NCBI GenBank assembly: GCA_016176785.1
Contig: JACOWN010000007.1
Coordinates: forward strand, 6,970-70,969
DNA from: Parcubacteria group bacterium
GTDB lineage: Bacteria; Patescibacteriota; Minisyncoccia; Phycocordibacterales; UBA2135
Direction: 5' to 3'
Length of the DNA: 64,000 bases
Each line of letters begins with the position of its first letter. Position 1 is the stretch's first letter. The notes beneath the pieces are model-generated. The model saw only the letters and a program-made list of their open reading frames with translations, ran no database searches and was not told the origin of the DNA. Both the position numbers and the translations under genes were made by a program. This document shows positions 2,640 through 63,529 of the stretch, in pieces.

Positions 2640-3752
2640 ATGTCCGTTTTACTCTTTATCATCGTCCTTGTCGTCCTCATTCTCGTCCACGAGTTCGGGC
2701 ATTTTATCGTTGCAAAAAAAACGGGGATCCGCGTTGACGAATTCGGGCTCGGATTTCCGCCGAAGCTTTTCAGCGTTCGCCGGGGAGAAACGGAGTATTC
2801 CATGAACGCGCTGCCGTTCGGCGGCTTTGTGCGCATTTTCGGAGAAAATCCAGAGGATGTCGCCTTAGACCATCCAGACCGCGCGCGGAGTTTCGTTGCC
2901 CGGCCAAAACCGATACAGGCAGCCGTCATGGTCGCCGGAGTTACCGCTAACATTGCGCTCGCGTGGGTCCTGCTTTCTTTTGGGTTTATGGTAGGGCTCC
3001 CCATGCCGGTTGACGGTGCGCCGCAAGGCGTCGTCGTGGAGAACGCGCGCGTCGCGATCATAAGCACCGCGGACGGCTCGCCCGCCTCCGAGGCGGGGCT
3101 TCTGCCCGGCGACCGCGTACTTTCTTTGTCTGCGAAAGGGGACCGGCGGGACATCGCGTCGGTCTCCGACCTGCAAACGTTCATTGCGTTCCACGGCGGC
3201 TTGCCCGTGACGGTGCTTTACGAACGGCAAGGCGAGCGGCAGACGGCGGTCGCAACGCCTCGTTCGGGTTCGGGGATTCCGGAGCTGCCGTTTGCGCAAC
3301 CGGCGCTCGGAGTCACCGTCGGTCTTATCGGCACGGTGACGCTTCCACCGCATCGCGCGTTTTTTGAAGGAGCGCGCATGACCGCCGCACTCACCTCGTC
3401 CGTCGTTTCTTCATTCGGCATGCTTGCCCGCGATGCGTTCCGCGGCGCAGCCGACCTCGCGACGCTCACCGGTCCCGTCGGCATCGCGGGTATCATCGGC
3501 GACGCAGCGGATTTCGGAATTATCTATCTTCTCGGGCTGACCGCGTTCATTTCCATTAATCTCGCCGTCATAAACCTCCTGCCGCTTCCCGCTCTTGACG
3601 GCGGCCGACTCCTTTTTCTTTTGATAGAAGCGGTGAGGGGTGCGCCGCTCAATCCGCGCGCGGTTACCATTGCGCATGCCGTCGGGTTTGCGGCTCTCAT
3701 CATCCTCATGCTCGTCGTCACCTTTAACGACATCGTCCGCATCGTTTCCTGA
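2640..3752 (+). CDS. rseP: RIP metalloprotease RseP (M50 site-2 protease with PDZ)
   Basis: HEFGHFIVAK zinc-binding HExxH in the first TM segment, central PDZ-like segment, NLLPLPALDGG motif near the C-terminus. Confidence 0.85.
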   Translation: MSVLLFIIVLVVLILVHEFGHFIVAKKTGIRVDEFGLGFPPKLFSVRRGETEYSMNALPFGGFVRIFGENPEDVALDHPDRARSFVARPKPIQAAVMVAGVTANIALAWVLLSFGFMVGLPMPVDGAPQGVVVENARVAIISTADGSPASEAGLLPGDRVLSLSAKGDRRDIASVSDLQTFIAFHGGLPVTVLYERQGERQTAVATPRSGSGIPELPFAQPALGVTVGLIGTVTLPPHRAFFEGARMTAALTSSVVSSFGMLARDAFRGAADLATLTGPVGIAGIIGDAADFGIIYLLGLTAFISINLAVINLLPLPALDGGRLLFLLIEAVRGAPLNPRAVTIAHAVGFAALIILMLVVTFNDIVRIVS

Positions 3753-3802
3753 TCACCGCAAGATCGCCGCGGCCGTGCGACGCGCGCCTGTCAATTTCCA
3801 TG

Positions 3803-3836
3803 AAAAAATCCCGCGCTAGTGCGGGAGATTTTTGGT
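3803..3836. terminator. bidirectional intrinsic terminator between rseP and the convergent minus-strand ORF
   Basis: A-tract, then stem TCCCGC/GCGGGA with a 6-nt loop, then a T-tract; sits between convergent gene ends. Confidence 0.5.
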
Positions 3837-4172
3837 GTGATGACGCACCACGGAAATGATCATGTCTGCCCATCCGGTTGCGTTCCCGACGAGCCAGTCG
3901 GCGTATTGTTGCCGCTTTTCGTCGGTGTCAAGCGGCGGCGAGAATGGATTTTGAACGGTCGTGTGCGCAACGCCCGCGCGAAGCTCCTGCCGACACTCGG
4001 GGTCGGGTTCAAAAAACCACGGAAAGAACACCGCTTTGTACCCGCGCCGCCACGTTTCGCTTTTGTCGGGAAACGCCTTGGAAAGCGCAGCGTCTGCTTC
4101 CGTTTCTGAAAGACATACGCGCTTGCTGAAGCTTAACTTGTTAAACGGGCCGTGCGTATGGCTCATTGCCAT
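3816..4172 (-). CDS. hypothetical protein
   Basis: About 118 aa from the ATG at 4172 (GGAG 7 nt upstream); non-repetitive protein-like sequence; the only sizable ORF in a 480-bp gap; convergent terminator at its 3' end. Confidence 0.4.
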   Translation of the reverse strand: MAMSHTHGPFNKLSFSKRVCLSETEADAALSKAFPDKSETWRRGYKAVFFPWFFEPDPECRQELRAGVAHTTVQNPFSPPLDTDEKRQQYADWLVGNATGWADMIISVVRHHTKNLPH

Positions 4173-4212
4173 TTCTCCGCATCGTCTCTTGTTCTGTATA
4201 GCACGGCGAAGT

Positions 4213-4241
4213 TTGAATGAAAAGCGCTTTTGGGCTATCAT
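4213..4241 (+). promoter_or_regulatory. sigma70-like promoter of proS (TTGAAT-17-TATCAT), leaderless configuration
   Basis: -35 TTGAAT at 4213-4218, 17-nt spacer, -10 TATCAT at 4236-4241, ATG at 4248 (6 nt after the -10). Confidence 0.4.
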
Positions 4242-5512: not shown

Positions 5513-6580
5513 ATGGAACTGCAACGCATCAGAGAACGGATACTCCGTTTGCTTTCAAACGATGTCGGCATTGACCTCGGCACGGCGAATACGCTTGTCT
5601 ATGTGCGCGGTTTCGGCATTGTCATTAACGAACCGTCAGTCGTCGCGTTGAACCAAAAGACGGGTCAAGTCGTCGCCATTGGAGCGCACGCGAAACAAAT
5701 GCTCGGGCGCACGCCGGCGCACATCACCGCCGTGCGTCCGCTGATAGACGGCGTTGTTTCCAATTTTGAAATCACGGAGGAAATGCTCGCGTATTTTTTG
5801 AACCGCGTGCACAAACTTTCCCCGCGCTTCATCCGCCCGCGCGTCGTCATCGGCGTGCCGTCGGGCATTACGAACGTGGAAACGCGCGCCGTCCGCGACG
5901 CGACGCGCGCGGCCGGCGCGCGCGAAGTGTTCATCGTTGAAGAGCCGATGGCGGCGGCCATCGGCATTCAACTGCCCATCCACGACCCCGTCGGCTCCAT
6001 GGTGGTTGACATCGGCGGCGGAACAACCGATATCGCGGTCATTTCTTTGGGAGGTATCGTGCAGTCGCGGAATGTCCGTATCGCCGGCGACCGTTTTAAT
6101 GAAGACATCATTTCTTACATCAGGAATGAGTTCAAGATCTTGATCGGCGACCGGACCGCCGAAAGCATCAAAATTGCCATCGGCTCGGTGTTGCCCGGAG
6201 ATGCGCCGGTGGAAGCGGCGATCCGCGGGCGCGACCTGGTGACCGGCCTTCCGCGCGAAGTCATCGTCACCGACACCGACATCAGAGAGGCGATCTCGCC
6301 GTCTATTGCGGTGCTTACGGAGTCCGTGAAGGAAGTGCTTGAAACGACGCCGCCCGAGGTGCTTGCGGACGTCATGACACGCGGCATTATGCTGGTGGGA
6401 GGCGGAGCGTCTCTCGGCGGGCTGACGACGCTCCTTGAGGGTGAGCTTAAAATACCCATTCACGTTGCGCATGACCCGCTGACCGCCGTCGTGCGCGGCA
6501 CCGGCGTCATCCTTGAGCGTATCCACGTCTATCGCGAAGTTCTCATCACGCAGGAGGACGATTTTCCTCCCACCGAATAG
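5513..6580 (+). CDS. mreB: rod shape-determining protein MreB (paralog 2, in the mreBCD-mrdA operon)
   Basis: 355 aa; VGIDLGTANTLVYV, DIGGGTTDIAVISLGG; immediately followed by mreC. Confidence 0.9.
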   Translation: MELQRIRERILRLLSNDVGIDLGTANTLVYVRGFGIVINEPSVVALNQKTGQVVAIGAHAKQMLGRTPAHITAVRPLIDGVVSNFEITEEMLAYFLNRVHKLSPRFIRPRVVIGVPSGITNVETRAVRDATRAAGAREVFIVEEPMAAAIGIQLPIHDPVGSMVVDIGGGTTDIAVISLGGIVQSRNVRIAGDRFNEDIISYIRNEFKILIGDRTAESIKIAIGSVLPGDAPVEAAIRGRDLVTGLPREVIVTDTDIREAISPSIAVLTESVKEVLETTPPEVLADVMTRGIMLVGGGASLGGLTTLLEGELKIPIHVAHDPLTAVVRGTGVILERIHVYREVLITQEDDFPPTE

Positions 6581-6583
6581 ATT

Positions 6584-7372
6584 ATGCCGCGCCGCGCACT
6601 CTGGTTCATCGGAGCCGTCATCATTATTGCGGGAGCGCTGTGGCGCTTTGATTTTTTGGCGGCGCCGCTCCGAACGGGCGCCCTCACGGCGTTCGCGCCG
6701 GCGTTTCGCGCCGGCGCGGACATTTCTGACGGCGTTATGCGGATGCGCGCGCGGCTCCGTTCCCAGGAAGAACTGGCGGAAGAGAACGCGCTCCTTCGCG
6801 AAGAACTCAATCGGGCGACGACCGAAGCGCTCCTCGCGAAGCGCCGCGCGGAGGAGAACGAATCGCTCAAAGAGATCTTCGGCCGCAGCGGCAACCGTTC
6901 GGGAGCGCTTCTCCTTGCCGCCGTCCTCGCGCGGCCCAACCGGTCGCCGTACGACACCTTTCTCATTGATGTCGGTTCGGAATCCGGCGTCAAGGTCGGC
7001 GACCGCGTATTCGTTCTCGGCGACATCGTTATCGGGACGATTGATGTCGTTTCCGGCTCTGCGTCCCGCGTCAAACTGTTTTCATCTCCCGGAGCCGTGA
7101 TAGACGTGCTCTTCGGTTCGGAACGCATAAGCGTTCCCGCGCGCGGCATCGGCGGCGGCAATTTTGAAGCGCGCCTGCCGCGCGGCGTTGATATCCGCGA
7201 AGGGGACATCGTCGCGTTTCCCGCCATCAGCACCGACATCGCGGGCGTCGTTCAAAAAGTGCTCGGCGATCCGGCCGACTCATTCCAGACAATTCTTTTC
7301 AAAAGTCCCGTTAACGTGTACGAAACGGAATGGGTCGAGGTATTGGTGGGCGAGCGCGTGCACACGCTCTAA
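6584..7372 (+). CDS. mreC: rod shape-determining protein MreC
   Basis: N-terminal TM segment, coiled-coil (LRSQEELAEENALLREEL), C-terminal beta-rich domain; position between mreB and mreD. Confidence 0.8.
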   Translation: MPRRALWFIGAVIIIAGALWRFDFLAAPLRTGALTAFAPAFRAGADISDGVMRMRARLRSQEELAEENALLREELNRATTEALLAKRRAEENESLKEIFGRSGNRSGALLLAAVLARPNRSPYDTFLIDVGSESGVKVGDRVFVLGDIVIGTIDVVSGSASRVKLFSSPGAVIDVLFGSERISVPARGIGGGNFEARLPRGVDIREGDIVAFPAISTDIAGVVQKVLGDPADSFQTILFKSPVNVYETEWVEVLVGERVHTL

Positions 7373-19087: not shown

Positions 19088-20056
19088 ATGCCGACAGTTT
19101 TTGTCACCCGAAAAATCCCCGAAACGGGGCTCAAACTGCTCCGAGAGAAGGGATATGAAGTGGATACGTCCGAAAAGGACGGCGTTTTGACGAAAGAAGA
19201 ATTGATCGCCGCGCTGCGGATGAAACCCTACGACGCGGTGCTGTGCCTTTTGACCGACACGATAGACGCGGCCGTTTTTGACGCGGCGCCCTCGGCGAAA
19301 ATTTTTGCGAACTACGCGGTCGGGTTTGACAATGTTGATGTCGCGGAAGCGAAGCGGCGCGGCGTTGTCGTCTCAAACACGCCGGATGTTCTGACGAATA
19401 CGGTTGCCGAACACACCTTTGCCCTTATGCTCGCAATCGCGCACCGGATCGCCGAGGCGGACCGTTTTACCCGCGCGGGGAAATACGAAGGATGGGCGCC
19501 GGAGCTTTTACTCGGAACAGGTGTATCCGGAAAGACCCTCGGCATCTTGGGCGCGGGGCGCATCGGCGCGCGCGTTGCCTACCACGGCGCGAAAAGTTTT
19601 GATATGCGGGTGCTTTACTATGACGTCAGGCGGAATGAGGCGATTGAAAAAGAAGTGAACGCGGAGTTTCGCGATAGCGTTGAGGCGGTTTTGAAAGAAG
19701 CGGATTTTGTGACTATCCATGTGCCGCTTCTTTACTCAACGCGGCATCTCATGAACCGCGCGCGGCTCGCTCTGATGAAGCCGACGGCCTATCTCGTGAA
19801 CACGTCGCGCGGGCCGGTCATTGACGAGGCGGCGCTTGTGGAAGCGCTTGGAAACGGGGTTATCAAGGGCGCGGCGCTGGATGTTTTTGAGAATGAGCCG
19901 GCGCTCGCCACCGGTCTTTCCGAGTTGGAGAATGTCATTGTGACGCCCCACATCGCTTCCGCGACTGAAGAGGCCCGCTCGGCGATGTCCCGTCTCGCGG
20001 CAGAAAACATTATTGCGGTTTTGGAAGGAGAAGAAGCCCCGAACGCGGTCAGATAG
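19088..20056 (+). CDS. D-isomer-specific 2-hydroxyacid dehydrogenase (glyoxylate/hydroxypyruvate reductase-like)
   Basis: GILGAGRIGARVA NAD-binding motif; catalytic R/E/H triad region (..TSRGPVIDE..HIASAT). Confidence 0.8.
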   Translation: MPTVFVTRKIPETGLKLLREKGYEVDTSEKDGVLTKEELIAALRMKPYDAVLCLLTDTIDAAVFDAAPSAKIFANYAVGFDNVDVAEAKRRGVVVSNTPDVLTNTVAEHTFALMLAIAHRIAEADRFTRAGKYEGWAPELLLGTGVSGKTLGILGAGRIGARVAYHGAKSFDMRVLYYDVRRNEAIEKEVNAEFRDSVEAVLKEADFVTIHVPLLYSTRHLMNRARLALMKPTAYLVNTSRGPVIDEAALVEALGNGVIKGAALDVFENEPALATGLSELENVIVTPHIASATEEARSAMSRLAAENIIAVLEGEEAPNAVR

Positions 20057-20117
20057 TGAAAGATATTATCACGTGTTTGTCGGAACATGTCGTTTCAACA
20101 AGCATTCTGACGGCAGA

Positions 20118-20241
20118 CACTTGGCAGGAGGGCGGTAATTTGTTATACATAACGCAGGAAGTGAAAGTCCAGTGTGCACTGGGCTTTGTCCCTCGACAAG
20201 CTCAGGGACAATCCCAAACCCAAGAAAAGGAGGAAGGACAA
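20118..20241 (+). promoter_or_regulatory. promoter plus conserved structured 5' leader of cassette copy 1
   Basis: TTGGCA-17-TGnTATACA extended -10; leader with hairpins CCAGUG..CACUGG and GUCCCU..AGGGAC; AAGGAGG RBS; about 90% identical to 21450-21639. Confidence 0.45.
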
Positions 20242-20955
20242 ATGGGAAAGCTGTGCAAGGATCAGAGGGAAACCCTGATTGGCAAGTTGGCCGCCCTGTT
20301 CTCAGGGGTTACGGCCGACGAGATCGACGAAGTGGTGGACGCCACCAAGACCCTTCTCACGAGTGAGGCCAAGGAAGCCAAGAACCGCGAGCGCCTGGAG
20401 ACCTTTGATGGTCAGGTCAAGACCTTGATCGACAAGGGCTACCCCGAAGCGGCCGGCATGGAGAAGGATCAGTTCCTCGGGTATGTGAACCCCCTCAGGG
20501 ACAAGTTCGAGATCGGCGACATCATCGTCATCCCCGAGCGGATCGTCTCCATCCCCAAGCAGATGTCGCTGGTGAAGCTCGCCGGCAAGACGGGCTATAC
20601 CCGCCTCAACCTCGGCGTGCTCACGCAAGCCGATGGTGTCGAGACCCCGAATGTCCCGTACCTGATTCGCGATGTCGAGGACGGGAGCGCCTGTCGGAAC
20701 ACCTCTCCCGGCGACTGCGTCAAGCAGTTCAAGAAGCAGGGACGGTTCGGACTCGTCACGGAGGAAGGGATCGCCATCGTCACCCACAAGCCGGAGACGC
20801 TCTGCGATCACTACATCGATCTCCCCGGCTCCCGCTATTATGGCTCGGGCCATGTGCCGCTCTTGTGGCTCAATGTCGGTCGGCCGAAGCTCGACTACAA
20901 CTGGGCTGTCAGCGACATCTCGAAGTGCGGTTCCGCGTCCTGCGGTAGTCGCTAG
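20242..20955 (+). CDS. hypothetical protein, cassette paralog A (unknown family)
   Basis: 237 aa from the ATG behind the AAGGAGG RBS; GC3-rich codon usage unlike neighbouring genes; paralog of 21640-22375; C-terminus ...GSASCGSR. Confidence 0.6.
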   Translation: MGKLCKDQRETLIGKLAALFSGVTADEIDEVVDATKTLLTSEAKEAKNRERLETFDGQVKTLIDKGYPEAAGMEKDQFLGYVNPLRDKFEIGDIIVIPERIVSIPKQMSLVKLAGKTGYTRLNLGVLTQADGVETPNVPYLIRDVEDGSACRNTSPGDCVKQFKKQGRFGLVTEEGIAIVTHKPETLCDHYIDLPGSRYYGSGHVPLLWLNVGRPKLDYNWAVSDISKCGSASCGSR

Positions 20956-21026
20956 GACTTTGGACTTTGGGCCCTTGCCGTGCCCGCCGTAGGCGAGGCT
21001 CGCCAAAGGCGGCAGGTCGCGTCACG

Positions 21027-21068
21027 CGACACAACGAGGGCAGTTCGATGCATCACGCACGATCTGCC
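21027..21068 (+). terminator. intrinsic terminator after cassette copy 1
   Basis: GGGCAG ... CTGCCC stem followed by TTTTTTT. Confidence 0.5.
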
Positions 21069-21174
21069 CTTTTTTTCTATCTTTTTATTCAAAAAAGCGG
21101 TAAATAAAAAACATGATGTTTGTTGCGCACAAGAGAGAAACCGCACTATACTTTCGTAAGACGTACAAGGAGGG

Positions 21175-21408
21175 TCACTCATCGCGTGTGAGCGCATGTG
21201 GATGATGCTTCGGACGTGAGGAGCGCGTCGGAATCGCTCCATAACCGCGTCTCTTTGCTTTCGCCACCCACTTTACCACTGCGGAGTGGGTGTATCCGAA
21301 ATGTCTCGCCGCCTTTCTCGTCGACCACCCGCGACGGACCAACTCCACCGCTTGTCCCCGAACTTTTGGCAGTTCGGGATTTAGTGCTATATGCCATATG
21401 CACTTCAT
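21175..21408 (-). mobile_element. truncated transposase N-terminus (HTH plus ..SRPKHHP linker; IS481/IS3-integrase-like), IS remnant
   Basis: 77 aa: ..VELVRRGWSTRKAARHFGYTHSAVVKWVAKAKRRGYGAIPTRSSRPKHHP, then stop; lies exactly where the similarity between the two cassette copies breaks (21178). Confidence 0.5.
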
Positions 21409-21449
21409 GCTAACCCCCAGGGTGGTTCCAAGCTATTGAACCATTACGG

Positions 21450-21639
21450 ACACTTGACAGGAGGGCAGTAATTTGTTACACGTAACGCAGGAAGTGAAAG
21501 TCCAGTATGTGCTGGGCTTTGTCCCTCGACAAGCTCGGGACAATCCTGAGCGAAGTCGAAGGATTGACAACGGAATAATCTCCGCCTACGCATAAAGCTA
21601 CGGCGGACAGGCCAAACCCAAGCAAAGGAGGAAAGACCG
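21450..21639 (+). promoter_or_regulatory. promoter plus conserved structured 5' leader of cassette copy 2 (about 70-nt insertion relative to copy 1)
   Basis: TTGACA at 21453; same leader hairpins as copy 1 with compensatory substitutions; AAGGAGG RBS. Confidence 0.45.
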
Positions 21640-22375
21640 ATGGGAAAGCTGTGCACGGATCAGTTGATCGGGAAGTTGGTCGCCCTCTTGCGAGAGGCCG
21701 ACTCGGAGGAGTTCGATGACGCGGTGACGCAGGCCAAGGGTCAACTCACGGCAGAGTCCAAGCAGGCCAAGCGGAACGACCTCGAGAAGCTCTTCGACGC
21801 TCAGATCGCGACTCTCAAGGATCGCGGCGTCCCCGAGCAGATCGTGGAGATCCTCCAGAACCAGAAGGGTTCGGTGGTGAAGAAGGCGAGCGAGTTCGGT
21901 GGTGAAGAAGGCGAGCGAGATGGCGATCGGAGACGGCAACATTCCGTTTCTCCCCGTCATCCCCCGCTCCCCTCGGAGCCCCTACGACCTCATGGCCATG
22001 GTGCGAAACGGTTCGAAGGTGGGCTACGCCTACCTCAACCCGACGCAGATCTCCGATGTGGTGGACGCTCCCCAAGAGCCCTACTACATCTACGATGTCG
22101 AGGACGGCAACATCACCCGTGGCAAGTCGCCGGAAGACGCCCTAAAGATCTTCAAGCAGCAGAAGCGGTCTCCGCTCACTGCCGCCGAGGTCATGGCGCT
22201 CGCGACTCACACGGATGTGCTCTCGCGGCACTATGTGTGGGCTACCGGCTCCCGCTATGAGTTCGCCGCCCGGGTGCCGAATGTCTATCTGGGCGGCGGT
22301 CGGCCGAAGCTCGGCTGGGACTGGGTCGGCGACTCGCTTGGCCACTGGGGTTCCGCGTCTTGCGGTAGTCGCTAG
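21640..22375 (+). pseudogene. cassette paralog B, disrupted by a frameshift
   Basis: ORFs 21640-22260 and 21899-22375 are in different frames but together align with paralog A (..YIYDVEDG..GSRY..GRPKL..GSASCGSR); the frameshift coincides with the 25-bp tandem duplication. Confidence 0.55.
21871..21919 (+). repeat. 25-bp perfect tandem duplication (tcggtggtgaagaaggcgagcgag x2)
   Basis: Seen directly in the sequence; the length is not a multiple of 3, so it shifts the frame of paralog B. Confidence 0.7.
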
Positions 22376-22497
22376 GACTTTGGACTTTGGGCCCTTGCCT
22401 GCCCGCCGATTTTTTCCCCCCGCCGTAGGCGAGGCTCGCCAAAGGCCAAGAGAGAAACCGCACTATACTTTCGTAAGACGTACAAGGAGGGTCACTA

Positions 22498-22908
22498 ATG
22501 GCGCGCAGGCCGAAGCAATCAGAAGTTGAAAAACGGCGCCGCGAGGCGTTGCCCGACCTCCCGTATTTTGACCGCGCGACGCTCGTGGAAGCGGGCGATG
22601 TTTTTTCGGGATACGCGGACCGATGGATAGGCCAGTATAAAGAAGGATATTGGGAGCCGCATCATATCCTGGCCCGACTCGTGGAAGAAGAGGTCGGCGA
22701 GCTGTCGCGCGAGGTGAACCACGAATTCGGCCCGAAAAGAAAAAAGAAAAGTGAGATCGCCGGAGGAGTTGCCGAAGAACTGAGCGACATTCTGTTCACG
22801 ATCGTCTGCCTCGCGAACTCCCGGGGCATCAACCTCGGCGCTTGCTTTGCGGACACATTGGCGAAGTACAATAAACGCGACACCGGGCGGTTCAAAAGAA
22901 AGAAGTGA
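22498..22908 (+). CDS. MazG-like nucleoside triphosphate pyrophosphohydrolase
   Basis: 136 aa; EEVGELS...AEELSDILFTIVCLAN MazG/NTP-PPase helical motifs; preceded by a TATACT -10 and an AAGGAGGG RBS that are also present (orphaned) after cassette copy 1. Confidence 0.7.
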   Translation: MARRPKQSEVEKRRREALPDLPYFDRATLVEAGDVFSGYADRWIGQYKEGYWEPHHILARLVEEEVGELSREVNHEFGPKRKKKSEIAGGVAEELSDILFTIVCLANSRGINLGACFADTLAKYNKRDTGRFKRKK

Positions 22909-57078: not shown

Positions 57079-57092
57079 AGTTTAACATCATT

Positions 57093-57117
57093 TTGTTCAA
57101 CACCCGATGTTGAACAA
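57093..57117. repeat. 25-bp palindrome TTGTTCAACACCCGATGTTGAACAA (copy between the ctpA stop and the rplI start)
   Basis: Identical to the copies at 1759-1783 and 58499-58523; followed on the plus strand by TTTTAATTTTAATT. Confidence 0.8.
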
Positions 57118-58409: not shown

Positions 58410-58498
58410 AGGGACATTATCGCAGAAGCGCTCGTTGTGGTCAAACCCGCTTCACGATATAATGTTACGTGATACGCCGCTACCCGTGTTACGTAAAA

Positions 58499-58523
58499 TT
58501 GTTCAACACCCGATGTTGAACAA
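58499..58523. repeat. 25-bp palindrome TTGTTCAACACCCGATGTTGAACAA (copy in the ctpA/corA divergent promoter region)
   Basis: Identical third copy, 24 nt upstream of the corA ATG and about 90 nt upstream of the ctpA start. Confidence 0.8.
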
Positions 58524-62362: not shown

Positions 62363-63529
62363 CTAGGACGACAGGTAATTGAAGAACACGGGGCGGAGTT
62401 GCATCACCTCGGCAAGCCCGTAATCCAAGTCGGCGACGTTCTCCTTATAGCGAAGCGATGAGGACGAATTGCAGTCGTTTGAGGTATTGACGCGGATTTC
62501 ACCCGTCGCGCTTGACCAGCACACGTCATCCTCTATGGTAGTTCCTGTCTCAAGCCCCGTCGCAAACATGTTGCCGTTGACATCAATTTTCATTTTTTCG
62601 GTAAAGGTAATGGTATTGCCCGCAGACCCGCTCCCTGCGGTGCGAAATATGTAACTGGCGGCGCCGTCTAAATAAACCTGTGAAGCGGCGGCGGTTTCTT
62701 TGTAAAGCCATGCGGTACCGTTGTAAAGTGCGTTCTGTCCCAAAAATGTCTCGTCGGAAACCCCCGCCAAGCCCGTCCTGTCGCCTATATCAAGTGCCGG
62801 GGTATTTGTCCACTGGCCATTCGGCACCACTCCGATGCCCAAGACACCAGTGCTTGTAATTCTCACCTTTTCCGCCATGGCTCCGTCAAGCATAGTGGCA
62901 AACACAAGTGCGGAATCACGCGTTGAAGCCGTGGATGTCCACTCTACTTCTTTTGCGGAAAAGACGCCTCCGGCGGTTCGTGAAGCACCCCCCGTATCCG
63001 CGAAAAAGAAACCATACCCGGCGATGCCGTTCACGGAGAATGTCGCGCTCGGCGAGGTTGTCCCAATGCCCAAGTTCCCGCTTGAATCAAGGCGCATGAC
63101 CTCGGTGCGCCCGCCCGCTTGGTGGTTTATGAACGCGAGTTCTGTTCCCCCCGATTCGCGGATTGACGAGATGCGGGATGATTTTGTTGCCGCCGTGCCG
63201 TGGTAGAAAATGAGGTCGGCGGTCGTGTTTTCTCCTGTACTCTTATTCTCTATGATGAGCGCGGGCGGCAGGTTCACGCCGTCCGAGGCGGTGTAGGTGA
63301 GCGCGCTCGTCGTTGCCGCGTGGAGGATGCCGTAGGTTTCCGTTGGTGAGTCAATCGCGATTTTCCCGTTGTCAAATATCGTGAGGATTTCTTTGTTGTT
63401 CGCGTCCGCGATTGCGAGTGTGCGTCCGGTTGAAACGCCCGCGCCGTTCACGGAGAATGTCGCGCTCGGCGAGGTTGTCCCAATGCCCAAGTTCCCGCTT
63501 GAATCAAGAGGTGCTTCCCCCGCGGTCAA
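62363..63529 (-). pseudogene. tail-fibre-like surface protein, central segment with xSGNLGIGTTSP repeats and a truncated S74-like motif before an in-frame TAG
   Basis: 388-aa ORF; DSSGNLGIGTTSPSATFSVNG occurs twice; C-terminus ..SSLRYKENVADLDYGLAEVMQLRPVFFNY resembles the first half of the S74 chaperone motif, then LSS and a stop. Confidence 0.5.
63026..63091. repeat. 66-bp perfect direct repeat, copy 1 (copy 2 at 63443-63508) inside the tail-fibre-like gene
   Basis: gccgttcacggagaatgtcgcgctcggcgaggttgtcccaatgcccaagttcccgcttgaatcaag is identical at both sites; copy 2 coincides with the frameshift. Confidence 0.75.

Follow-up and report, generated by a model that had tools for sequence, protein, structure and literature searches.

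Tandem DUF5701 units and their leaders

The window analyzed here is the whole 64,000-nt stretch of contig JACOWN010000007.1 from a Parcubacteria group bacterium. It contains two tandem units, each running from a promoter-like site through a leader and an open reading frame (ORF) to a structured tail. Both ORFs belong to the Pfam family DUF5701. This analysis concerns the 5′ leaders of the two genes, for which an initial annotation had proposed a riboswitch or an attenuator. In the first unit the leader is ~92 nt long and ends at 20241, as annotated, since the ATG of copy 1 lies at 20242. The features of the two units, with the Shine-Dalgarno sequence abbreviated as SD and minimum free energy as MFE, are as follows.

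20121..20149, + strand: promoter of copy 1, TTGGCA (20121-20126), 17 nt, TATACA (20144-20149), with TG at 20141-20142, one base upstream of the −10 box (sequence)
20142..20153, no strand: palindrome GTTAT-ac-ATAAC of copy 1, over the −10 box and start site (sequence, alignment)
20164..20187, + strand: hairpin 1 of copy 1, AAAGUCCAGU-GUGC-ACUGGGCUUU (alignment, RNAalifold, MFE folds)
20188..20209, + strand: hairpin 2 of copy 1, GUCCCU-CGACAAGCUC-AGGGAC, a palindromic insert of ~18 nt specific to the window (alignment)
20210..20241, + strand: CA-rich unstructured linker and SD AAGGAGG (20227-20233) of copy 1 (sequence)
20242..20955, + strand: DUF5701 copy 1, 237 aa (Pfam PF18959, E = 9.6e-23)
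20956..21076, + strand: 3′ tail of copy 1, with YTTGG repeats, GC-rich hairpins and the terminator GGGCAGTTCGATGCATCACGCACGATCTGCCC plus T-run (21038-21076)
21454..21482, + strand: promoter of copy 2, TTGACA (21454-21459), 17 nt, TACACG (21477-21482), with TG ahead (sequence, alignment)
21475-21486: palindrome GTTAC-ac-GTAAC of copy 2 (sequence)
21497..21520, + strand: hairpin 1 of copy 2, AAAGUCCAGU-AUGU-GCUGGGCUUU, the consensus form (alignment, covariance model score 61.7 bits)
21521..21541, + strand: hairpin 2 of copy 2, GUCCC-UCGACAAGCUC-GGGAC (sequence)
21542..21606, + strand: extra segment of copy 2 (alignment with relatives)
21607..21639, + strand: linker and SD AAGGAGG (21625-21631) of copy 2 (sequence)
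21640..22375, + strand: DUF5701 copy 2, from ATG to stop, of a divergent paralogue type and frameshifted (Pfam DUF5701, E = 1.4e-16)
22376..22446, + strand: 3′ tail of copy 2, without the terminator hairpin, running straight into the mazG promoter

Comparison of the two copies confirmed that they share a near-identical leader. Two blocks of it were 91% (20116-20206 and 21449-21539) and 90% (20214-20265 and 21612-21663) identical, and they were split by an indel, with ~65 nt more in copy 2 than in copy 1. Every palindrome quoted in the initial annotation was found in the sequence, and the AAGGAGG ribosome-binding site was located 8 nt before the ATG in both leaders. Also upheld was the reading of the region as a conserved 5′ leader; the promoter ahead of it is of the σ70 type, with an extended −10 element, and the shared upstream sequence is a genuine promoter and 5′ untranslated leader of the two DUF5701 genes.

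The same promoter and leader recurred beyond chance, at the nucleotide level, beside DUF5701 genes in unrelated genomic contexts. A protein search returned 33 relatives, all of them DUF5701 proteins; every named one came from Patescibacteria (e.g. Campbellbacteria), and many were on contigs of 1-2 kb. Among the 40 related loci retrieved for comparison, ten further loci carried a homologous leader, namely L002 (= L001, L003, L004, L006, L019), L005, L017, L018, L021, L030-L033 and L040. The flanking genes differed in all leader-bearing loci (e.g. VKOR/DoxX, peptidase M50/ProS, aldehyde dehydrogenase, and SecDF/MetK), and the homology extended from 4-5 nt upstream of the −35 box to just past the terminator, so the unit behaves as a self-contained cassette. 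Viral contigs gave no match to the DNA pattern of the leader or to the alignment of the proteins, and phage genomes gave none to the cassette in blastn.

Hairpin 1 and the other palindromes of the leader

The two window leaders were aligned with those of the ten further distinct Patescibacteria loci (alignment A3, 12 leaders). The conserved parts of this alignment were the promoter, hairpin 1, the short linker GACAACG(A/G)AAU(C/A)AUCC… and the block AAAAGGAGGAAAGACCGAUGGGAAAGCU. Hairpin 1 is the sole conserved RNA structure of the leader. Its stem of 10 bp contained standard pairs in 98.3% of 119 cells, and pairing fell to 20-61% when the 3′ partner was slid by ±1-3 columns. Double compensatory changes were found at two pairs (C-G to U-A in L021 and G-C to A-U in L031) and single-sided changes at five pairs, every one of them to another standard pair, while three of the ten pairs were invariant; the non-pairs were two A·C cells, both at the pair of columns 53 and 72. 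The helix was recovered independently by RNAalifold and likewise by the MFE folds of both copies. L021 retained it, with a bulge, despite a changed promoter and a much altered stem sequence, and L031 retained it behind a non-homologous upstream region in which no promoter was called. The loop varied among AUGU, GUGC, AUGC, AUAU and GUGU, and was 2 nt shorter in L030. A covariance model of hairpin 1, run over the window and 32 loci, found no copies outside its training loci, so hairpin 1 is not a dispersed repeat.

These changes in other genomes, compensatory and wobble alike, support the earlier claim that the leader holds a folded RNA element. The helix as first drawn, CCAGUG-ug-CACUGG, needed correction. 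Its G-C pair, said to become A-U in the second copy, consists of the positions flanking a 2-nt center, which cannot pair in RNA; the helix that can form here, AAAGUCCAGU/(A|G)CUGGGCUUU, encloses a loop of 4 nt, and the exchange of U-A for U·G is the only difference between the copies that is truly paired. The argument that wobble pairs point to RNA held for hairpin 1 but for no other helix. G·U pairs occupied 24 of its 119 cells (20%), at two positions in nearly all sequences, and hairpin 1 can therefore be a feature of the sense strand only, with RNA favored over a double-stranded DNA operator, because the complementary strand or a DNA palindrome would carry ~20% mismatches. The wider alignment likewise upheld hairpin 1, with modest statistics, but not the other elements that had been claimed.

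Hairpin 2 was one of the latter. GUCCC(U)…(A)GGGAC had been proposed as a conserved RNA structure; it was present in both window copies, but none of the 10 homologous leaders had it, their sequence at its site being GGGCTTTGACAACG… or GGGCUUUGACAACG…. Its loop TCGACAAGCTC recurred in the 3′ tail of L034 on a different stem (ACGGT/ACCGT). The MFE fold of the copy 1 leader (fold z-score −1.9) gave two neighboring hairpins and an essentially open SD. In that of copy 2 (z-score −3.45), the helix of hairpin 1 was unchanged, and hairpin 2 refolded together with the AAUCCU…AGGAUU element into another, more stable nested structure; these two elements are thus not independent stable features in copy 2.

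The extra segment of copy 2 consisted of three parts.

21542-21565: AAUCCU…AGGAUU
21566-21580: ancestral linker GACAACGGAAUAAUC
21582-21606: GC-rich palindrome CCGCCUACGCAUAAAGCUACGGCGG

The segment had been described as an insertion of roughly 70 nt with its own hairpin. Copy 2 does have ~65 extra nt that include AAUCCU…AGGAUU, but part of them is ancestral. The linker GACAACGGAAUAAUC was common to L021, L018, L030, L032, L033 and L040 and is the normal linker, the palindrome CCGCCUACGCAUAAAGCUACGGCGG was common to copy 2 and L021, and GACAACGGAATAATCTCCGCCTACGCATAAAGCTACGGCGG, which lies within the supposed insertion, occurred also in L021 and partly in L018 and L032. Copy 1 is therefore, at least in part, a deleted form.

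Short GC-rich palindromes of 20-35 nt, these among them, were found at several sites in the window and its relatives, including the leader of L018, the tails of L008 and L013, and, in frame, the end of the L012 ORF.

Window: 20188-20209, 21521-21541, 21582-21606, 20983-21010 and 22419-22446
Relatives: L018 146-175, L008 6697-6716 and L012 ~6540-6600

With the loop TCGACAAGCTC reused on different stems, these GC-rich palindromes may belong to a patescibacterial family of miniature palindromic insertion elements. Hairpin 2, CCGCCUACGC…GCUACGGCGG and the CCUGCCUGCCGGCAGGCAGG type are GC-rich hairpins of 20-35 nt, as are repetitive extragenic palindromic (REP) and bacterial interspersed mosaic element (BIME) repeats, Rickettsia palindromic elements and hairpins resembling miniature inverted-repeat transposable elements (MITE), and like these they are present or absent in otherwise collinear leaders and tails of the window and its relatives. 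They differ in that no transposase or target-site duplication was identified, and the copies are too few to define a family.

The palindrome over the −10 box is a DNA-level feature and not an RNA one, because its 2-nt center cannot be an RNA loop and because it overlaps the −10 element, upstream of or at the predicted transcription start site (TSS). GTTAT-ac-ATAAC spans the −10 hexamer and extends no further than that site, which for copy 1 is predicted near 20156. The homologues read GTTATACTTAAC at this position; the inner pair was unpaired in 10 of the 12 leaders and formed only in the two window copies, and the helix as a whole was 69.5% paired in the alignment. The change between GTTAT and GTTAC, which had been read as RNA covariation, thus sits in promoter DNA around a 2-nt center and is specific to this genome. 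The consensus promoter of the 12 leaders was TTGACA-17-TATACT with TG, and the T at position 6 of the −10 box in the homologues was missing in both window copies. A promoter scan called the homologous promoters of L017 and L021, with 11 of 12 positions matched and the TG present, where TTGACA-17-TATACT and TTGACA-17-TATAGT enclose different spacer sequences, while the window promoters were left uncalled because that T is missing.

The same changes that removed it gave the two window copies different perfect 5+5 palindromes, which could mark a genome-specific operator. A broader form of this idea takes the palindromes, and especially GTTAT-ac-ATAAC over the −10 box and start site, as double-stranded DNA operators for a dimeric repressor. 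The position would be ideal for repression, both window copies extend the GTTATACTTAAC of the homologues to 5+5 bp by different pairs (T-A and C-G), and, as the aligned copies read, of the eight positions at which the 91-nt repeat differs, five are symmetric within palindromes. We nevertheless consider it improbable. Operator half-sites conserved among the homologous promoters were not found, so that with the inner pair missing in 10 of 12 leaders an operator would be genome-specific at best; the G·U content of hairpin 1 is at odds with DNA symmetry; and the loss of the −10 T may be plain promoter decay. No repressor gene was evident, the nearby helix-turn-helix (HTH) ORF at 21175-21408 being a transposase fragment of the IS481/IS630 type. 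The palindrome was also considered as an integron attC or recombination site and rejected, as GTTATAC does not fit the form GTTRRRY and the element was not conserved.

Function of the leader

The proposal that the leader is a riboswitch or transcription attenuator has, in our view, a very slight chance of being correct. In its favor, the leader is conserved and has a real RNA helix inside, and the gene function is unknown, so that a ligand is conceivable a priori. However, the leader contained a single helix with a variable loop and no fold that would sequester the SD; in most leaders the MFE or centroid fold left the SD unpaired. Hairpin 1 was followed by GACAACG… without a U-tract, the only U-run (UUU) lying inside the stem; no anti-SD pairing was present, and scans of the leaders of the window and its relatives revealed no terminator-like site. 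The short natural form in L017 has ~30 unstructured nt between hairpin and SD, and the element was missing from many orthologues. No conserved multi-helix aptamer, pseudoknot or set of conserved unpaired nucleotides was found in the 12 leaders. Rfam 15 gave no match for the leader: the whole window had none at the gathering score, 19900-22600 had nothing relevant at E≤10, and six related loci had no match.

Among known riboswitches, preQ1-I resembles the leader in that a short hairpin and then an A/C-rich tail directly precede the SD. It differs in that the present element had no Rfam match, does not sequester the SD, is missing from many orthologues, and has a loop that is unconserved and shortened in L030, which makes a loop-tail pseudoknot unlikely. 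A loop-to-linker pseudoknot of this kind was tried as a candidate and rejected, with only trivial complementarities of 3 nt and a loop that is not conserved.

It is just as improbable that the conserved block encodes a peptide, either as an N-terminal extension from a GTG (MKVQYVLGF…) or as a regulatory upstream ORF (uORF). The GTG frame was open and in phase with the ATG in 4 of 12 leaders (window copy 1, L002, L005 and L017), and the database proteins P0002, P0015 and P0030 were called with the GTG extension. However, the frame of the GTG, which lies in the 5′ arm, was out of phase in 7 of 12, L021 had no start codon, L030 had a stop after 8 codons, and the peptides differed in length and sequence. 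No properly spaced SD precedes the GTG, whereas AAGGAGG stands 8 nt before the ATG. Since neither frame, length nor presence of a leader peptide ORF was conserved across the 12 leaders, the frame analysis largely ruled out both the uORF and the N-terminal extension.

Our preferred reading, held tentatively and with slightly less than even confidence, is that hairpin 1 is a 5′-proximal protective or organizing stem-loop of the ordinary mRNA-stabilizing kind, in a leader for constitutive expression. A 5′-proximal stem-loop, an unstructured CA/A-rich linker and a consensus SD, in this order, are classical for bacterial mRNAs that are stable and efficiently translated, and 5′ stabilizers of this type include the hairpin of the Escherichia coli ompA 5′ untranslated region (UTR) and those of Bacillus subtilis aprE, ermC and phage SP82. 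The self-contained cassette here would be read in the order promoter, leader, DUF5701 gene, structured 3′ tail and terminator. Transcription would start ~7 nt after the extended −10 promoter, and the mRNA would begin with ~5-8 unpaired nt followed by a 10-bp stem-loop (12-13 bp in most relatives), then the unstructured CA/A-rich linker and the consensus AAGGAGG, 8 nt before the ATG. By hindering 5′-end-dependent mRNA decay and leaving the ribosome-binding region accessible, the stem-loop would lead to strong, essentially constitutive expression with no ligand sensing. In this scheme we infer where transcription starts, how the stem-loop affects mRNA stability and how strongly the gene is expressed.

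The basis for this reading is that compensatory and wobble changes kept the helix, specifically on the sense strand, and that its region was more conserved than four-fold sites; that the position of the hairpin was constant behind the two different promoters called in L017 and L021; that the SD was open; and that the leaders had neither a terminator nor a conserved uORF. In these two loci the extended stem (GUG/GUC…GAC, 12-13 bp) starts ~5 nt after the predicted +1, and the core stem in the window starts ~8 nt after the predicted TSS. As in ompA, aprE, ermC and SP82, a simple stem-loop lies a few nucleotides from the presumed 5′ end, structure rather than loop sequence is kept, the strong ribosome-binding site is open, and a ligand-sensing architecture is absent. 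The differences are that the predicted single-stranded tail, counted here from a predicted 5′ end, is longer at ~5-8 nt, and that the hosts are Patescibacteria, whose RNA decay machinery is uncharacterized. A design of hairpin, CA-rich linker and strong SD recurs even without sequence identity, since the distant subfamily L011/L012 had an unrelated long leader hairpin, covarying between paralogues, followed by CAAAUAACAAACCAAA-AGGAGG.

Several observations weigh against this stabilizing role. In L035, a canonical promoter and an intact gene were found, and hairpin and linker were deleted between two CCAG repeats. In L020/L036 both promoter and leader were unrelated up to the junction at the SD, and the hairpin was missing, and the distant DUF5701 loci (L007/L022, L008, L013, L023, L037 and L038) had unrelated leaders. 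Hairpin 1 is thus dispensable, as indicated by the L035 deletion and by the leaders without it in L020/L036, L007/L038 and L008. Ten loci share the leader, but it has lost its hairpin in L035 and is replaced by unrelated leaders in others. The covariation support was modest, with 37 of 500 shuffles reaching the observed score, because variation was low and only 12 sequences were available; the genome and metagenome protein scans yielded only 11 and 13 loci, limiting the power of the test. The 5-8 unpaired nt, counted from a predicted TSS, would be at the upper limit for classical 5′ stabilizers. Finally, some of the conservation could have its source in recent horizontal transfer or in recombination of cassette ends, and not in selection.

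Two other explanations concern the same conservation. Hairpin 1 could be the site at which a protein, such as RNase III or a regulator of translation or stability, binds or processes the mRNA and thereby coordinates expression of the DUF5701 paralogues; we regard this as unlikely, though it stands first among the alternatives. Between the paralogue types (copy 1-like against copy 2/L005-like), the proteins were 43-52% identical and four-fold sites had an identity of 0.48, while the hairpin region reached 0.90, so the leader is far above neutral. It was common to both paralogue types in at least two genomes, and the stem sequence was highly conserved, three of the ten pairs not varying at all. 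However, the loop is variable in both sequence and length, an unusual trait in a site that a protein recognizes by its sequence; L035 does without the hairpin, other subfamilies lack it, and no candidate gene for an RNA-binding protein was consistently linked, the flanking genes differing from locus to locus.

The second explanation, somewhat less probable again, is that the hairpin has no function of its own and was conserved through recent horizontal spread of the cassette, with its ends homogenized by recombination or gene conversion. Within type A, four-fold sites were still 76% identical, against 0.84 for the hairpin region, and the cassette occurred in varied gene neighborhoods of genomes with very different GC content. 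The window copies form a mosaic, with ends of 90-99% and a middle of 65% identity: the leader was 90% identical, the stretch from the SD to codon 8 also 90%, the middle of the coding sequence 65% at the nucleotide level, and in the invariant end of the gene plus the 3′ tail (20929-21010 against 22349-22446) 80 of 81 aligned positions matched. L035 tolerates the loss of the hairpin. Against this explanation, the stem substitutions were mostly pair-preserving, with the drop in pairing described above when the partner was slid, and L021 keeps a bulged helix although its promoter and much of its stem have changed. What has maintained the UTRs is thus either selection or recombination at the ends of the cassettes. 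Ranked from most to least likely, the alternatives to the stabilizing stem-loop are the protein or processing hairpin, hitch-hiking, the −10 operator, the riboswitch or attenuator, and the uORF.

DUF5701 genes and diversity-generating retroelements

The C-terminal ~35 codons of DUF5701 proteins were hypervariable between proteins otherwise 81-93% identical. In copy 1 the hypervariable stretch was located at ~20825-20928, followed by the invariant end GGTTCCGCGTCCTGCGGTAGTCGC at 20929-20952. Variable sites at codon positions 1, 2 and 3 numbered 15, 17 and 5 in the 34 codons of this variable region (VR), against 49, 30 and 79 in 180 upstream codons; variation at positions 1 and 2 is the AAY signature of diversity-generating retroelements (DGRs). 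Both window genes end in a VR of the DGR type and an invariant end (GGTTCCGCGTCYTGCGGTAGTCGC) resembling the initiation of mutagenic homing (IMH) sequence, at 20825-20952 and 22245-22372. In L009/L026 and L027 the gene was followed by an A-rich template repeat (TR) and then a reverse transcriptase (RT), and the mismatches between TR and VR fell at TR adenines in 19 of 20 cases in L009 and in 17 of 19 in L027. The set in L009 was as follows.

2317-2434: VR
2717-2834: TR
3254-4225: RT

When the RT of L038 was used as query in tblastn, an RT beside DUF5701 was found in L008 (truncated), L009/L026, L027, L031, L033 and L038. The RT product carries Pfam RVT_1, with only sub-threshold RT matches in NCBIfam, and contains IGNLTSQ, which we take to be a DGR-RT motif. 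In the 64-kb window, no TR was found by BLAST with both VRs and an A-substituted guess of the TR, and no RT by tblastn with the L038 protein, so the window genes, which look like DGR targets, would be orphan or remote ones. The AlphaFold2 model of the DUF5701 protein was confident, with a predicted local distance difference test score (pLDDT) of 89, and Foldseek matches in the PDB were weak (E≥0.05), many of them to C-type-lectin, Link-module or EgtB/FGE-type domains. In the searchable literature, no paper mentioned the family and no description of it as a DGR target was found. DGRs specific to the candidate phyla radiation (CPR) have been reported with targets lacking recognizable domains (PMC8144416).

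Copy 2 is frameshifted by an exact tandem duplication of 25 nt (21869-21893 and 21894-21918). Removal of one unit restored an ORF of 236 aa with 43% identity to copy 1 and 78% to the L005 protein. The duplication may mark a pseudogene or a slippage-type switch, or it may be an assembly artefact.

The 3′ tails had features of their own. Directly after the stop codon, 2-6 tandem YTYGG units were observed at a spacing of 7-9 nt (e.g. GACTTTGG TCTTTGG ATCTTTGG…), with a mean of 2.1 per 70 nt against 0.45 expected. The units lay beside VRs and not beside the L009 TR, and may serve this DGR lineage in target recognition or as an RNA-protein element.

Window: 20956-20980 and 22376-22400
L038: 4685-4735
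L008: 6715-6760
L009: 2441-2475

A 32-nt terminator pattern (21038-21069) matched exactly in the window and in one Campbellbacteria locus (L001-L004 and L006), had three mismatches in L005, and was also readable in L017, L020, L031, L036 and L040. The terminator GGGCAGTTCGATGCATCACGCACGATCTGCCC was 100% identical, loop included, in the window and across different genomes (L002, L017, L020, L031, L036 and L040), and was followed by a conserved AAAAAAG(T/C)G(A/G)TAAAT; this conservation is unusually strong for a plain terminator.

The mazG promoter and its ribosome-binding site were duplicated after each cassette (21130-21186 and 22447-22503, 96% identity), the first copy without an ATG and followed by the 77-aa HTH transposase fragment of the IS481/IS630 type mentioned above (21175-21408, − strand). 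These features suggest recombination or insertion between conserved flanks of the cassettes as the origin of the tandem arrangement. Between cassette terminator and convergent RT gene, a long inverted repeat GCTGCCTACATTGACTGGAAA…TTTCAGTCAATGTGGGCAGC around a GC-rich core was observed at three loci.

L031: ~1040-1200
L033: ~1290-1460
L040: ~1175-1240

Part of this repeat, TAGGGCGGTTGTCTC, resembles the sequence upstream of the L009 TR. Rfam gave no match for the inverted repeat, which may be a DGR non-coding RNA scaffold.

Other repeats were observed elsewhere in the window. A 66-nt direct repeat was 100% identical between copies 417 nt apart (63026-63091 and 63443-63508), and a palindromic motif, TTGTTCAACACCCGATGTTGAACAA, which could be an operator or a terminator-like repeat, occurred in three copies (1746-1783, 57080-57117 and 58486-58523). 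A paralogous gene pair ~5.2 kb apart (703-857 against 5912-6066, and 359-441 against 5565-5647) had 72-75% nucleotide identity; from a GIDLGTANT-type motif it may be MreB/actin-like.

In the DGR of Bordetella phage BPP-1, the cis elements are an IMH at the 3′ end of the VR and a downstream hairpin. The DUF5701 cassettes are alike in their invariant VR end and structured 3′ flank, and relatives of the window genes carry TR and RT; they differ in the leader, which lies ~700 nt away from the VR and is not similar to the TR flanks. To our knowledge, DGR cis elements are known at the 3′ end of targets and none in the 5′ UTR. There is a small chance, above that of a riboswitch, that the hairpin of the leader combines with the first eight codons and the highly conserved 3′ tail in a target-cassette architecture peculiar to one Patescibacteria DGR lineage, with the hairpin as a cis element of the retroelement or of a dedicated regulator. 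If so, the hairpin would, for example, couple the expression of diversified paralogues or mark target transcripts and would not be a generic stabilizer, and leaders ~90% identical at 43-52% protein identity in different genomes would be accounted for.

Hairpin 1 is a simple, uncatalogued stem-loop motif of the 5′ UTR, limited to one DUF5701 subfamily in Patescibacteria. Taken alone, the leader is a modest result that removes a riboswitch candidate; the DGR-target cassette is the more interesting biology. Pfam DUF5701 is now tied to the DGRs of CPR bacteria, and its members that serve as targets travel as compact expression cassettes conserved at the nucleotide level, and the protein is less conserved in them than the promoter, the leader and the 3′ tail. 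Should the UTRs prove functional within the DGR system, they would represent new cis elements of targeted hypermutation.

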